From Escherichia phage AV116, in sequence record OR352946.1: DNA of 64,000 nucleotides; one strand, written 5' to 3'. Position numbers and translations under genes: made by a program. The notes beneath the pieces were generated by a model, which did no database searches, was not told the DNA's origin, and saw only the letters and a list, made by a program, of their open reading frames with translations. Positions 33,651 to 64,000 of this stretch are shown here, one piece after another (position 1 is the stretch's first letter; each line of letters begins with the position of its first letter).

Positions 33651-33899
33651 TTATTTCAAAGTAATAACAAAATGACGTACTGCTTTACGAGCTGCAGAAG
33701 CCAAAGGCTTAGCATATTTCAGTTCATCTTTTGCTTCCAGTTCAGAAGCCAAAGCTGCCTGGACCGGGTTCAGATGTTTGAAATAACGAAGGATTTCAAG
33801 AGCTTCGGCTTCAACATCAATAGATGCGCCATAGTTTTCATGACCATTATTCCATGCGTTTCGTTGCAGTTCAAGAGCGTGTTGTAATTGTTTAATCAT
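33651..33899 (-). CDS. rIII: rIII lysis-inhibition accessory protein (by size and position)
   Basis: 82 aa ORF adjacent to gene 31, matching T4 rIII length and neighbourhood as I recall it. Confidence 0.65.
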   Translation of the reverse strand: MIKQLQHALELQRNAWNNGHENYGASIDVEAEALEILRYFKHLNPVQAALASELEAKDELKYAKPLASAARKAVRHFVITLK

Positions 33900-34413: not shown

Positions 34414-34722
34414 TTACATAAGAAGCAAACGTTCTACCGGAGTACCATCAACCGAAATTACTTTATCAAGGCGGAAAGAACGCCACTGACCTAACTTGGT
34501 ATCGAATGCTCGAACTGATTCACGAGGTTCAGAACGAACTTCTGTTGCTGGATTTCTATTTTCATATTTGACTTCAAGTTCATCACGGGAGGCAAACATC
34601 GTACGAACATCACCATTAGCCTTTTCAAATACAACACAATGAACACCTACAGACAGAATAGTTTTAATACGTTCACGAAGAACCATAGTTTCTTGTTCAG
34701 TTAAAATCATATTATTCACCAC
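34414..34722 (-). CDS. hypothetical protein (102 aa; alternative ATG at 34710)
   Basis: ORF between gene 31 and cd; the track start overlaps the cd stop by 11 nt, whereas Met5 starts 1 nt after it. Confidence 0.5.
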   Translation of the reverse strand: MVNNMILTEQETMVLRERIKTILSVGVHCVVFEKANGDVRTMFASRDELEVKYENRNPATEVRSEPRESVRAFDTKLGQWRSFRLDKVISVDGTPVERLLLM

Positions 34723-35293
34723 AAAAGTTTCGAATTTGTTCCCAATTCAGAGAACGAAGATTATTACGAGAGTACTGAATTACTTCAATACCAGCTTGTT
34801 TTAGAATGTCTGCCCAATTTTCAGGAGACCGGTCATATAATTCTGCATATACAACCTTTTTAATGCCTGACTGTGTGATAGCTTTAGTGCAATCAGGACA
34901 TGGAGAAAGTGTCGTATATAACGTAGCACCTTCAATAGAATTACCTTTACGAGCTGCAAACAAAATTGCATTCAATTCCGCATGGATTTCGTTATTAGCA
35001 GACCATGCACTATGAGCAGCCCGATGTTCTTTAGCCAAAACAAAATTATCTGCCCGTCCAAATGCTGTAGTGCCTTCTTTATGTCCAGCAACGATGACCT
35101 GGCTTGGTTTATTCTTCAACCAGCCGTTTTCGGATGCATGTTCGCAACAGTTTGTACCACCTGAAGGAGAGCCATTATAACCTGTAGAAATAATGCGTCC
35201 ATCTTTTTCAATGACGGCACCAACTTTCCATGAACAACATTTTGATTCTTGAGAAATCAAATAAGCAATTTGAAGATATGTGCTAGCTTTCAT
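34712..35293 (-). CDS. cd: dCMP deaminase
   Basis: 193 aa; zinc-binding deaminase motifs HAELNAI and PCPDC; T4 Cd size. Confidence 0.9.
   Translation of the reverse strand: MKASTYLQIAYLISQESKCCSWKVGAVIEKDGRIISTGYNGSPSGGTNCCEHASENGWLKNKPSQVIVAGHKEGTTAFGRADNFVLAKEHRAAHSAWSANNEIHAELNAILFAARKGNSIEGATLYTTLSPCPDCTKAITQSGIKKVVYAELYDRSPENWADILKQAGIEVIQYSRNNLRSLNWEQIRNFCGE

Positions 35294-37377: not shown

Positions 37378-37378
<1 letters not shown>
37187..37378 (-). CDS. hypothetical protein (63 aa)
   Basis: ORF directly downstream of pseT. Confidence 0.45.
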
Positions 37379-38464
<1,086 letters not shown>

Positions 38465-38465
<1 letters not shown>

Positions 38466-38764
38466 TATTTTATTCCTAAGAAAGTTTCAAGAATACGAAT
38501 GTTATGCTCGCGCCGGTCTTTATTAATTTCAGCAACGTTTTTATTGATTGACGTACTTCTAACGTTTGAAGAAATAAATTTAATCATATGACTTTTGAGT
38601 TGTTGCAAATCCAACCCTTTTTCTTTAGCAGCTTTACGAAGAGCTTTACCTGCTTCATCTAGTGCCTTTGCTGCATCTTTGTCATAATCGACAAGTGACA
38701 TTCCACGGCAGATATCAATATACTCATCAGACCGTTTGATGTAATTCTCTAGTATTGTTTTCAT
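38465..38764 (-). CDS. hypothetical protein (99 aa)
   Basis: ORF in pseT-alc block. Confidence 0.5.
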
Positions 38765-38821: not shown

Positions 38822-39046
38822 CTATTTTACTAAAGATTCAATATACTCATGAAGAGCTTTAGTCGCTACTGCCCACTTATTCTGATATTCATTTTTCAGA
38901 TTAGCACGAGACTGAACTAACAAGCGGTCATTAGTCGGAGGCAAAGATTCTAATCGTTGAATCTGGCGTCCATAAATCATAGCCGCCATTTCAGATTCAT
39001 AGATAAGCCCTTTAATGTATTCATGCTGTTCTTTAGTCATTGGCAT
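38822..39046 (-). CDS. hypothetical protein (74 aa)
   Basis: ORF in pseT-alc block. Confidence 0.5.
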   Translation of the reverse strand: MPMTKEQHEYIKGLIYESEMAAMIYGRQIQRLESLPPTNDRLLVQSRANLKNEYQNKWAVATKALHEYIESLVK

Positions 39047-39327
39047 TTTTCCTCTTTTAAACCACTACGATAATAACATAACATAGTCTTCTGGTCATGT
39101 ATATATCTTTTTACGTCGTTTAACCAGATACGAAATTCTTGAGAGTCTTCAAATGGCATTCCAACCCACGGATTACCATCAATAACCTTTACTTGCCATT
39201 TCTGGTTGTATTCGGAAATAGGCGTAGGCCATGAAGGATGTAAAGTTTCTTTAGGGCTTACTGGCACATCCTGAGTACATCCAACTAGGAGACCAATAGA
39301 TAATACAGCCACAGTTAATTTAATCAT
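39037..39327 (-). CDS. predicted lipoprotein (96 aa)
   Basis: N-terminal signal peptide with lipobox LVGC (MIKLTVAVLSIGLLVGCTQD). Confidence 0.55.
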   Translation of the reverse strand: MIKLTVAVLSIGLLVGCTQDVPVSPKETLHPSWPTPISEYNQKWQVKVIDGNPWVGMPFEDSQEFRIWLNDVKRYIHDQKTMLCYYRSGLKEEKCQ

Positions 39328-39680
39328 TCTGAGAGCTTCCTGAGGTCTTCTGCAAAGGAATCGAAGGACCTGTTGATTTGTTTTTCGACCAATCCTGGCT
39401 TACTTGCCACCACGTTCTTCTTCTTCGAATCCTTACGGAGCTTTTCATTTTCGGCCTTAAGTTGGTCAACTAAAACACGGTTCTTATAAGTCATTTCTTC
39501 GATTGACTGATATTGAACCTTGAAGTCGTCTAATACTTTAGCATTGTTTTTAGCAGCCTCTTTGACAGAAGCTAATTCAGTATTCAACGAATCAACTTTG
39601 TTGTTTAAGACAACTATTGTTACAGTAGAAACTAGAGCAAAAGCGGCTACTATAGCGTAAATCGGATTTACTTTAAGCAT
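39324..39680 (-). CDS. predicted membrane-anchored coiled-coil protein (118 aa)
   Basis: N-terminal hydrophobic helix PIYAIVAAFALVSTVTIVVL followed by a charged helical region. Confidence 0.55.
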   Translation of the reverse strand: MLKVNPIYAIVAAFALVSTVTIVVLNNKVDSLNTELASVKEAAKNNAKVLDDFKVQYQSIEEMTYKNRVLVDQLKAENEKLRKDSKKKNVVASKPGLVEKQINRSFDSFAEDLRKLSE

Positions 39681-40168
39681 GTTTTAATAATCTCAATGAT
39701 TTCATCTCGGGACAATCCATTGATAAGAACGGTTTTCAAACCATCGCACTGGATTTTGTATGATTCAAACAATACACACAACTCTTCTGCTGTATGATAC
39801 GGACTTGAAATTCCGAGGCGGTTGAATTTGTCGGTAAGAGGGTCGCAAATAATGTAGAATTTTATACCTGCGATATGTACGTTTGGTTGACTAATATTAA
39901 TGAACACATTAGCGTCGTATTTAGTCAAATTGTTTTGAAGAAATTCTACCATGGCATTAACTGCTTCCGGCATCGCTTCGCGTTTCTCTTCAGCGTATCG
40001 GGTGGAATACTCTTTTTGTTTTACTTTCTTTTTAAGATTTTTGGCCAGTGTAACACGTAGGTCGGTAAGATATCCAACTGGACGTCCTTTCTTAAAGACC
40101 CGGATTCCGTCTGTAGAATCACCAAATGCTGCTACAACCATATCGTTAGTAATCAATTGCATATTCAT
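39668..40168 (-). CDS. alc: Alc-like protein (by position and size)
   Basis: 166 aa ORF immediately upstream of rnlA in map order, as T4 alc (about 167 aa); strong SD GAGGAG. Confidence 0.55.
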   Translation of the reverse strand: MNMQLITNDMVVAAFGDSTDGIRVFKKGRPVGYLTDLRVTLAKNLKKKVKQKEYSTRYAEEKREAMPEAVNAMVEFLQNNLTKYDANVFINISQPNVHIAGIKFYIICDPLTDKFNRLGISSPYHTAEELCVLFESYKIQCDGLKTVLINGLSRDEIIEIIKTCLK

Positions 40169-40198: not shown

Positions 40199-40228
40199 AT
40201 AGTAACACCATCCTTGGTGTTTGTAAAC
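40199..40228 (-). promoter_or_regulatory. early promoter GTTTAC-N18-TACTAT
   Basis: between the rnlA stop and the alc start. Confidence 0.55.
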
Positions 40229-40230
40229 CA

Positions 40231-41364
<1,134 letters not shown>

Positions 41365-41383: not shown

Positions 41384-41413
41384 ATTGTACCACAATCCTT
41401 GTGGTATGTAAAC
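41384..41413 (-). promoter_or_regulatory. early promoter GTTTAC-N18-TACAAT
   Basis: minus-strand -35/-10 pair overlapping the denA 3' end, upstream of rnlA. Confidence 0.55.
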
Positions 41414-41823
41414 TACTTTTTCTTATGTTGGATATTCCAAGGCGGGTTGAACTTTTTGATAAAAAGTGGTTCTTCAAGGTCCATTGTTGCGATGGTCATT
41501 GAACCAAGTTCGTTGGTGACTGAAAGGTCAAAACATTGGCGGGCCCAGAATTCAACCTTTTTGCCTTGCATTAAGGCATCCAAAATCATAAGTGATTTTC
41601 TTGAATCTGAAGTCTGGTCTTTTCGATTTATGGCTGTTCGATAATAGTTAATGCGTTTCTTTAAATTCTTGGTTTTACCAATATACACAAGTTCGTCATC
41701 TATAGCAATAGCATATATAACATTTTTCTTATTAGGGGCATCAATGGTTTTAATTGTTGCATCTTCTAATAGCTCCAATTCTATATATTTAATAAAGGAA
41801 TATTCGGCGGCAATATCTTTCAT
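41413..41823 (-). CDS. denA: endonuclease II (DenA)
   Basis: 136 aa, GIY-YIG-like core (YAIAIDDELVYIGKT); T4 denA size and position. Confidence 0.85.
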   Translation of the reverse strand: MKDIAAEYSFIKYIELELLEDATIKTIDAPNKKNVIYAIAIDDELVYIGKTKNLKKRINYYRTAINRKDQTSDSRKSLMILDALMQGKKVEFWARQCFDLSVTNELGSMTIATMDLEEPLFIKKFNPPWNIQHKKK

Positions 41824-63606: not shown

Positions 63607-64000
63607 ATGGCAACACCAAAAGTATCATTTTCACTTAGTGATATTCTATTTGGGTTGCTAGATCGTATTTTCAAAGATAACGCTACTGGAAAGGTTTTAA
63701 TGTCCCGAGTAGCGGTAATTATTCTTTTGTTCCTAATGGCACTAATATGGTACAAAGGAAGTATTTTGCTGGATTATTATGTAAGAGCTAAGTATGATAC
63801 TTATACCGAAATAATCCAAAAAGAACGAGCTTTACGTTTTGAATCTGCGGCTCTAGAACAACTGCAAATAGTTCATATCTCATCTGGTGCAGATTTTAGT
63901 GCTGTGTATTCTTTCAGACCTAAAAACTTAAATTATTTTGTCGACCTTATAGCTTATGAAGGCAAACTACCTAGCACAATTTCTGAAAAGTCCCTTGGCG
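63607..64000 (+). CDS. t: holin T (3'-truncated by window end)
   Basis: ATG at 63607 with AAGGAGG SD; N-terminus MATPKVSFSLSDILFGLLDRIFKDNATGKV with a single TM segment, like T4 holin T. Confidence 0.85.
   Translation, partial: MATPKVSFSLSDILFGLLDRIFKDNATGKVLMSRVAVIILLFLMALIWYKGSILLDYYVRAKYDTYTEIIQKERALRFESAALEQLQIVHISSGADFSAVYSFRPKNLNYFVDLIAYEGKLPSTISEKSLG

Follow-up and report, generated by a model that had tools for sequence, protein, structure and literature searches.

A predicted T4-type two-component spanin in the alc-pseT region of Escherichia phage AV116

The 'separated' class of spanins was reportedly described by Summer et al. in 2007, and the T4-type spanin is said to have been identified in that same year. 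Both of the T4 genes concerned, pseT.3 and pseT.2, carry the label 'Rz-like spanin' in the T4 RefSeq record. Their products, PseT.3 and PseT.2, have become the paradigm of the 'separated' two-component architecture (Kongari et al. 2018; PMC6139136), and a lambda Rzam Rz1am lysogen lyses again when supplied with the two genes together (PMC6139136). PseT.3, which lacks cysteine, has a pair of helices in the periplasm, the first alone being prone to form a coiled coil, and in PseT.2 a beta-alpha-beta domain is combined with a variable linker (PMC6139136). The C87S and C98S mutants of PseT.2 are each lysis-defective, both cysteines being indispensable and retained across the family, and PseT.2 formed a disulfide-linked dimer only with PseT.3 present (PMC6139136). 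Here we describe a pair of adjacent genes in phage AV116, a Mosigvirus (JS98-like T-even phage), that almost certainly encodes a T4-type two-component spanin.

The window analysed was a stretch of 64,000 nt from the AV116 record OR352946.1. The genes surrounding the pair form a densely packed and partly overlapping run on the minus strand, from rnlA to pseT, as follows.

40231-41355, minus strand: rnlA (Pfam T4_Rnl1_C, 3e-41)
39668-40168, minus strand: alc (Pfam ALC, 8.5e-42)
39324-39680, minus strand: i-spanin gene, orthologue of T4 pseT.3, encoding a predicted type II inner-membrane protein of 118 aa (ORF with ATG start, BLASTP, PHROG)
39037-39327, minus strand: o-spanin gene, orthologue of T4 pseT.2, encoding a 96-aa precursor of a predicted outer-membrane lipoprotein of ~80 aa when mature (ORF with ATG start, BLASTP, PHROG)
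38822-39046, minus strand: pseT.1-like ORF (PHROG 2347)
37378-38277, minus strand: pseT (Pfam HAD_PNKP, 2.8e-58)

Successive overlaps along alc-pseT.3-pseT.2-pseT.1 are of 13, 4 and 10 (or 4) bases, the second being the ATGA at 39324-39327 in which the i-spanin gene's stop codon overlaps the start codon of the like-oriented o-spanin gene. Two small ORFs lie between the pseT.1-like ORF and pseT. Since tblastn found relatives of the 118-aa protein in 1377 phage records and of the 96-aa protein in 1110, the two spanin ORFs are not chance ORFs; the plus-strand ORFs beneath them are short (31-46 aa) and without support. The 1.6 kb surrounding the pair are 97.6-97.9% identical at the DNA level to Escherichia phages APCEc01 and moha, and an Rfam scan of the whole window at gathering thresholds found no RNA family. 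An earlier sequence-only reading of this DNA had described, within a pseT-alc block, an ORF pair at 39037-39680 encoding a lipoprotein with the lipobox LVGC and a single-pass membrane protein with a coiled coil. Both ORFs are present at exactly these coordinates on the minus strand, the placement is borne out by the Pfam identification of pseT and alc, and the anatomy of the two proteins given below agrees with that description.

The i-spanin matched PHROG 739 'Rz-like spanin' (category lysis) with an E value of 2.2e-34 over residues 1-117 of 118, and the o-spanin matched PHROG 812, with the same name and category, with an E value of 1.1e-44 over residues 1-96. In BLASTP comparisons that were essentially full length, the i-spanin was 47% identical to T4 PseT.3 (E 2e-32) and the o-spanin 68% identical to T4 PseT.2 (E 2e-51). 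No model in Pfam or NCBIfam recognises either protein, the i-spanin matches to many coiled-coil families and to FtsL all being sub-threshold, and the family placement therefore rests on the PHROGs together with the direct comparison with T4. Among close relatives the pair is already known, since spanins are annotated in near-identical genomes: the o-spanin is 100% identical to moha QHR68361 'outer membrane lipoprotein Rz1' and to an APCEc01 'Rz-like spanin', and the i-spanin is 99% identical to the 'spanin Rz' of moha (QHR68360) and to the APCEc01 protein, with one A42T difference. The annotated spanins of APCEc01 are YP_009225031/YP_009225032. In many sister records the spanin genes are labelled 'hypothetical protein' or, wrongly, 'thioredoxin'.

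The features of the i-spanin and the positions of their codons are as follows.

39606-39662, minus strand: single N-terminal transmembrane helix, residues 7-25 (IYAIVAAFALVSTVTIVVL) (Kyte-Doolittle, AlphaFold2 model, relatives)
39417-39602, minus strand: predicted periplasmic helix alpha-1, residues ~27-88, with a heptad coiled-coil pattern (heptads, AlphaFold2, weak coiled-coil Pfam matches)
39327-39452, minus strand: conserved C-terminal region, residues 77-118 (ENEKLRKD...KPGLVEKQIN...FAEDL), including helix alpha-2 (alignments)

Residues 7-25 gave the best 19-residue Kyte-Doolittle window (mean 2.56), and the scan found no second hydrophobic segment, the other 92 residues being charged, hydrophilic and helical. 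A hydrophobic N-terminus was found in all nine aligned relatives. The i-spanin thus has a single N-terminal TMD with its remainder predicted to be periplasmic, which is the topology of a type II protein, and we infer the N-in orientation from Lys3 and from the family. Beyond the membrane, the heptad register V29-L32-L36-V39-A43-N46-L50-F53-Y57-I60 is unbroken, with a weaker extension to about residue 81, and the a/d positions from V29 to I60 are 88% hydrophobic compared with 20-25% elsewhere. A single-sequence AlphaFold2 model (mean pLDDT 84.7, and >90 across residues 21-80) predicted a helix at residues 6-88, a break at about 89-96 that includes K94-P95-G96, and a second helix at 96-117. The periplasmic domain is accordingly predicted to resemble that of PseT.3, a short linker connecting two helices of which the first alone has coiled-coil character, and the protein contains no cysteine. 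By analogy with the C-terminal contacts between lambda Rz and Rz1, residues 77-118 would provide the docking surface for the o-spanin.

In the o-spanin the corresponding features are the following.

39277-39327, minus strand: predicted lipoprotein signal peptide, residues 1-17, with the lipobox LVGC at 39277-39288 (pattern match, DNA)
39076-39078, minus strand: codon of Cys84, equivalent to C87 of T4 PseT.2 (invariant in the nine-sequence alignment)
39043-39045, minus strand: codon of Cys95, equivalent to C98 of T4 PseT.2 (Cys in eight of the nine aligned relatives)

The N-terminus of the precursor is MIKLTVAVLSIGLLVGC, in which M-I-K is followed by an uncharged hydrophobic stretch leading up to the lipobox at residues 14-17, whose codons were read from the DNA as ctagttggatgt. 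Residues 7-17 fit a PROSITE PS51257-style pattern. The residue predicted to be lipid-modified is Cys17, and the +2 residue is Thr18, not Asp. The protein therefore combines a lipobox cysteine, a +2 residue other than Asp and two C-terminal cysteines, as is expected of an o-spanin of this type, with lipidation and localisation being predicted. For the mature o-spanin, AlphaFold2 run on the single sequence gave a model of low confidence (pLDDT 56), which weakly hints at a disordered linker at the N-terminus, a hairpin, a helix and, at the C-terminus, a further hairpin bearing both cysteines.

The pair was aligned from nine phages: AV116, T4, VR7, Aeromonas phages PS49 and P19, Klebsiella phage Mineola, Krischvirus Makalu_002, Citrobacter phage Miller and the T5-like Vibrio phage Chester. 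In all nine, the gene of a helical protein with a hydrophobic N-terminus comes immediately before a lipoprotein gene, and this adjacent i/o pair is retained in Tevenvirinae, Krischvirus, Pseudotevenvirus, Emmerichvirinae and a T5-like Vibrio phage. In the o-spanin alignment L14, the lipobox Cys17 and the first C-terminal cysteine are invariant, and the second C-terminal cysteine is present in eight of the nine; at +2 there is T, S, A or V, and Asp does not occur. The invariant residues of the i-spanin (K94, L97 and E99) are confined to its C-terminal motif KP-x-LVEKQIN. In both proteins, then, conservation is highest in the C-terminal regions, the TMD, coiled coil and linker being more variable, and this is the pattern that would be expected if the two C-termini dock to one another.

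A more distant homologous pair is found in the unclassified Pseudomonas phage Voja-6 (PHROG 739, 5.5e-16; PHROG 812, 2.7e-19), where it directly follows an Amidase_2 endolysin (Pfam 1.1e-7; PHROG 822 'amidase', 3e-23) and a 106-aa hydrophobic protein. The o-spanin ORF of Voja-6 starts within the i-spanin gene (1156-1602 compared with 819-1322), and the arrangement is that of a classical endolysin/holin/spanin cassette with 'overlapped' architecture. Because of this cassette the family is tied to lysis genes even outside T4-like genomes, and the Voja-6 context is independent evidence for a lysis role.

From its sequence, the AV116 pair is predicted to act at the final step of lysis by breaking the outer membrane of the host, as do its T4 orthologues. 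Since the two proteins lack a Pfam or NCBIfam model and PDB sequence searches returned no solved structure of a relative (best E 0.2-0.8), the physical mechanism proposed here rests on the analogy with lambda Rz/Rz1, supplemented by what is known of lipoprotein biogenesis. The N-terminal helix of the i-spanin would lie in the inner membrane (N-in, C-out), with the long coiled coil and the short second helix extending into the periplasm. The o-spanin would be exported and receive its lipid on Cys17, and signal peptidase II would cleave it. As its +2 residue is Thr and not Asp, the Lol pathway would deliver it to the outer membrane, in whose inner leaflet it would be anchored. Its proline-rich flexible linker (residues 18-43) would then let the folded C-terminal domain (residues 44-96) extend to the conserved C-terminal part of the i-spanin. 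The periplasm is commonly cited as being ~20-25 nm wide, and a rough estimate of the span fits this distance: the 62-residue helix would contribute ~9 nm and the 22-residue helix ~3 nm, to which the small domain and a linker of ~26 residues reaching at most 9 nm are added. The i/o complexes would be threaded through the peptidoglycan mesh and kept inactive by it, and with such restraint harmless accumulation from early or middle transcription would be possible. Upon triggering of holin T and degradation of the wall by endolysin E the complexes would be freed and could oligomerise, the o-spanin cysteines C84 and C95 shifting from an intramolecular to two intermolecular disulfides as the complexes collapse. 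This collapse would draw the inner and outer membranes together, leading to their fusion or rupture and to the release of progeny.

The timing of expression bears on this proposal. The elements relevant to it are listed here together with the other lysis genes of the window.

40199-40227, minus strand: candidate sigma-70-like promoter, TTTACA-17-TACTAT with TG (extended -10), just upstream of alc (consensus scan)
63607-64000, plus strand: 5' part of the holin gene t, a functional partner timing lysis, clipped by the end of the window (Pfam Phage_holin_T, 2.2e-53)
33651-33899, minus strand: rIII, encoding a lysis-inhibition accessory protein (PHROG 1457, 3.8e-43; 99% identical to the annotated APCEc01 protein)

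Searched on both strands, the 36-44 kb interval contained no TATAAATA late-promoter motif, and the minus strand of the 37-43 kb interval had no complete MotA-box middle promoter. The candidate at 40199-40227 could drive alc-pseT.3-pseT.2-pseT.1 as a single transcription unit, sigma-70-like sites in the region being no commoner than in shuffled sequence. Early or middle expression of the pair is plausible and would agree with the word 'early' in the sequence-only reading, and it would be compatible with spanin function since spanins do no harm as long as the wall is intact. It is unusual for lysis genes to be distant from the holin gene t and to be without a recognisable late promoter, as the spanin genes are here, and those of T4 are likewise apart from t and without a late promoter (PMC6139136). 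With rIII, t and the spanin genes scattered, AV116 resembles T4 in the distribution of its lysis genes.

This arrangement raises the idea that the pair, while being a bona fide spanin, has a second role before lysis, such as tethering or stabilising the envelope in lysis inhibition, or altering susceptibility to lysis from without or to superinfection. The separation of the spanin genes from t and e and their want of a late promoter motif would be consistent with such a role, as would the scattering of rIII and t in the window, and the complexes would presumably be present through most of the infection. However, the literature yielded no supporting data, and the restraint by peptidoglycan known from lambda is sufficient to explain early accumulation. 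We therefore consider a second role very improbable, although if true it would partially rescue the idea of exclusion.

The sequence-only reading had favoured an envelope role in superinfection exclusion. As to compartment it was right, but the function predicted for the pair in the envelope is the destruction of the outer membrane at lysis, not the blocking of entry by other phages. The looser alternative in that reading, a modification of the cell envelope, would hold only in the sense of this destruction. An early exclusion system that blocks DNA entry or receptor use in the manner of Imm/Sp, Llp or Cor would suit the envelope location and the probable early or middle expression (no late-promoter motif nearby, a sigma-70-like site upstream of alc), and the lipoproteins Llp and Cor do exclude phages, but it is the least probable reading of all, since the pair is orthologous to T4 proteins with a demonstrated function in lysis (PMC6139136), all of its significant matches are to the spanin families PHROG 739 and 812, its Voja-6 relatives lie in a lysis cassette, and the obligatory i/o pairing with paired conserved C-terminal regions suits a complex that spans the periplasm, not a receptor blocker. 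PADLOC gave no match of the pair to its anti-phage defence models, which is weak negative evidence because that library was not designed for phage-encoded exclusion proteins, and none of the titles and abstracts returned by a literature search on spanins and superinfection exclusion assigns exclusion to a spanin. Superinfection exclusion or defence as the primary function was rejected on this PADLOC result and on these titles and abstracts.

As a discovery the AV116 pair is of small value, since the T4-type spanin was reportedly recognised in 2007 and had been tested experimentally by 2018, and the AV116 copies are identical or near-identical to annotated spanins. The practical value lies in annotation hygiene, in view of the 'hypothetical protein' and 'thioredoxin' labels in sister genomes. 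The case also illustrates that a spanin is easily mistaken for an exclusion system from sequence alone.

Among known systems, Llp of T5 and Cor of T1-like phages are exclusion lipoproteins and, together with Imm and Sp of T4, are small phage envelope proteins. Unlike the AV116 pair, these proteins work singly, their target being a receptor or DNA entry, without a coiled-coil partner in the inner membrane, and scans with Pfam, PHROG, NCBIfam and PADLOC found no sequence relationship of the pair to Llp, Cor, Imm or Sp. The likeness to lambda Rz/Rz1 is one of design, both systems consisting of a type II inner-membrane coiled-coil protein and a small outer-membrane lipoprotein. Lambda Rz/Rz1 has no detectable sequence similarity to the AV116 pair, for which the sole weaker PHROG match was to PHROG 214 (1.7e-6). 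The Rz1 gene is embedded in Rz whereas the AV116 genes are in tandem, and the lambda i-spanin has cysteines whereas that of AV116 has none. Rz1 is proline-rich and unstructured whereas a beta-alpha-beta domain is predicted in the T4-type o-spanin, so that the lambda o-spanin, from which the mechanistic analogy is taken, differs structurally from its T4-type counterpart.

The closest experimentally studied system is that of T4, with which AV116 has in common the order alc - pseT.3 - pseT.2 - pseT.1 - pseT, similar lengths (118 aa compared with 117 aa in T4 for the i-spanin, and 96 aa compared with 99 aa for the o-spanin), an N-terminal TMD, an i-spanin free of cysteine, the identical lipobox LVGC and two C-terminal cysteines in the o-spanin. 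Near-identical blocks are found at WQVKVIDG..WVGMPFEDSQEFRIWLNDVKRY and at ENEKLRKD..KPGLVEKQIN. The AV116 i-spanin has diverged from that of T4 in its TMD and coiled-coil helix (hence the 47% identity overall), its o-spanin linker is three residues shorter and of different sequence, and AV116 has two small ORFs between pseT.1 and pseT that are extra with respect to T4. These differences leave the kind of system unchanged, and between the AV116 pair and the annotated spanins of the Mosigvirus phages APCEc01 and moha there is essentially no difference.

The o-spanin of this phage (the T4 PseT.2 orthologue; window 39037-39327, minus strand) is better conserved relative to T4 than is its partner i-spanin (the PseT.3 orthologue), at 68% and 47%, respectively. 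In the o-spanin the differences from T4 are concentrated in the signal peptide and the linker, and in the i-spanin they are concentrated in the transmembrane domain and the coiled coil. The C-terminal regions of both proteins are nearly invariant between the two phages, a pattern consistent with these regions being co-conserved surfaces through which the two proteins may dock.

The same o-spanin family was also found in Pseudomonas phage Voja-6, where the following ORF was located in L011, a stretch of record PP496442.1:

1156-1602 of L011, plus strand: o-spanin ORF (PHROG 812, 2.7e-19), with lipobox LLTAC and C-terminal CYYRRDLKEDQC

Because this ORF and the i-spanin gene share 167 nt, the T4-type o-spanin family occurs in the "overlapped" architecture as well, in this case adjoining an amidase endolysin. 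The Voja-6 record itself calls only the C-terminal third of the o-spanin, from an internal Met start (1432-1602), as "hypothetical protein".

Other public records also contain errors for these genes. In ESCO10 (OM386655.1; L014, a stretch of that record, 251-891) the label "thioredoxin" is wrongly given to alc, to both spanins and to the ORF that follows, and in phage F2 (NC_054913.1; stretch L013, 341-604) the CDS annotated for the i-spanin is just 264 nt long, leaving out the N-terminal part. In roughly half of the closest relatives the spanin pair is still annotated as "hypothetical protein".

As in T4, the lysis genes besides the spanins are scattered in the window, with rIII lying 5 kb from the pair:

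63607-64000, plus strand: holin t, 5' 131 codons, cut by the window end (Pfam Phage_holin_T, 2.2e-53)
33651-33899, minus strand: rIII, lysis-inhibition accessory protein (PHROG 1457)

Three further loci of the window were compared with known phages:

38274-38764, minus strand: two small ORFs separating pseT.1 from pseT, with PHROG matches
38821-38793: strong sigma-70-like site from a consensus scan (TTTACA-17-TATAAT, 11/12 matches), just upstream of these two ORFs
41413-41823, minus strand: GIY-YIG protein, 136 aa
35293-36285, minus strand: DAHP synthase, 330 aa (Pfam DAHP_synth_1, 5.9e-76)
34712-35293, minus strand: cd, dCMP deaminase gene

The two small ORFs encode proteins of 99 aa (PHROG 2364, 1e-48) and 63 aa (PHROG 8683, 2.7e-41), whereas in T4 pseT is directly abutted by pseT.1. 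With 78% identity to T4 DenA (endonuclease II; E 3e-81), the GIY-YIG protein, labelled "GIY-YIG catalytic domain protein" in the close relative moha, is that enzyme's orthologue and not a mobile homing endonuclease insertion. DAHP synthase is the first enzyme of the shikimate pathway, and its gene lies directly upstream of cd on the coding strand. It appears to be an auxiliary metabolic gene whose presence varies, here carried by a T-even phage: it is likewise annotated in APCEc01, another close Mosigvirus relative, but is missing from the same position in the otherwise 97.6% identical moha, while T4 has only small cd.x ORFs there.
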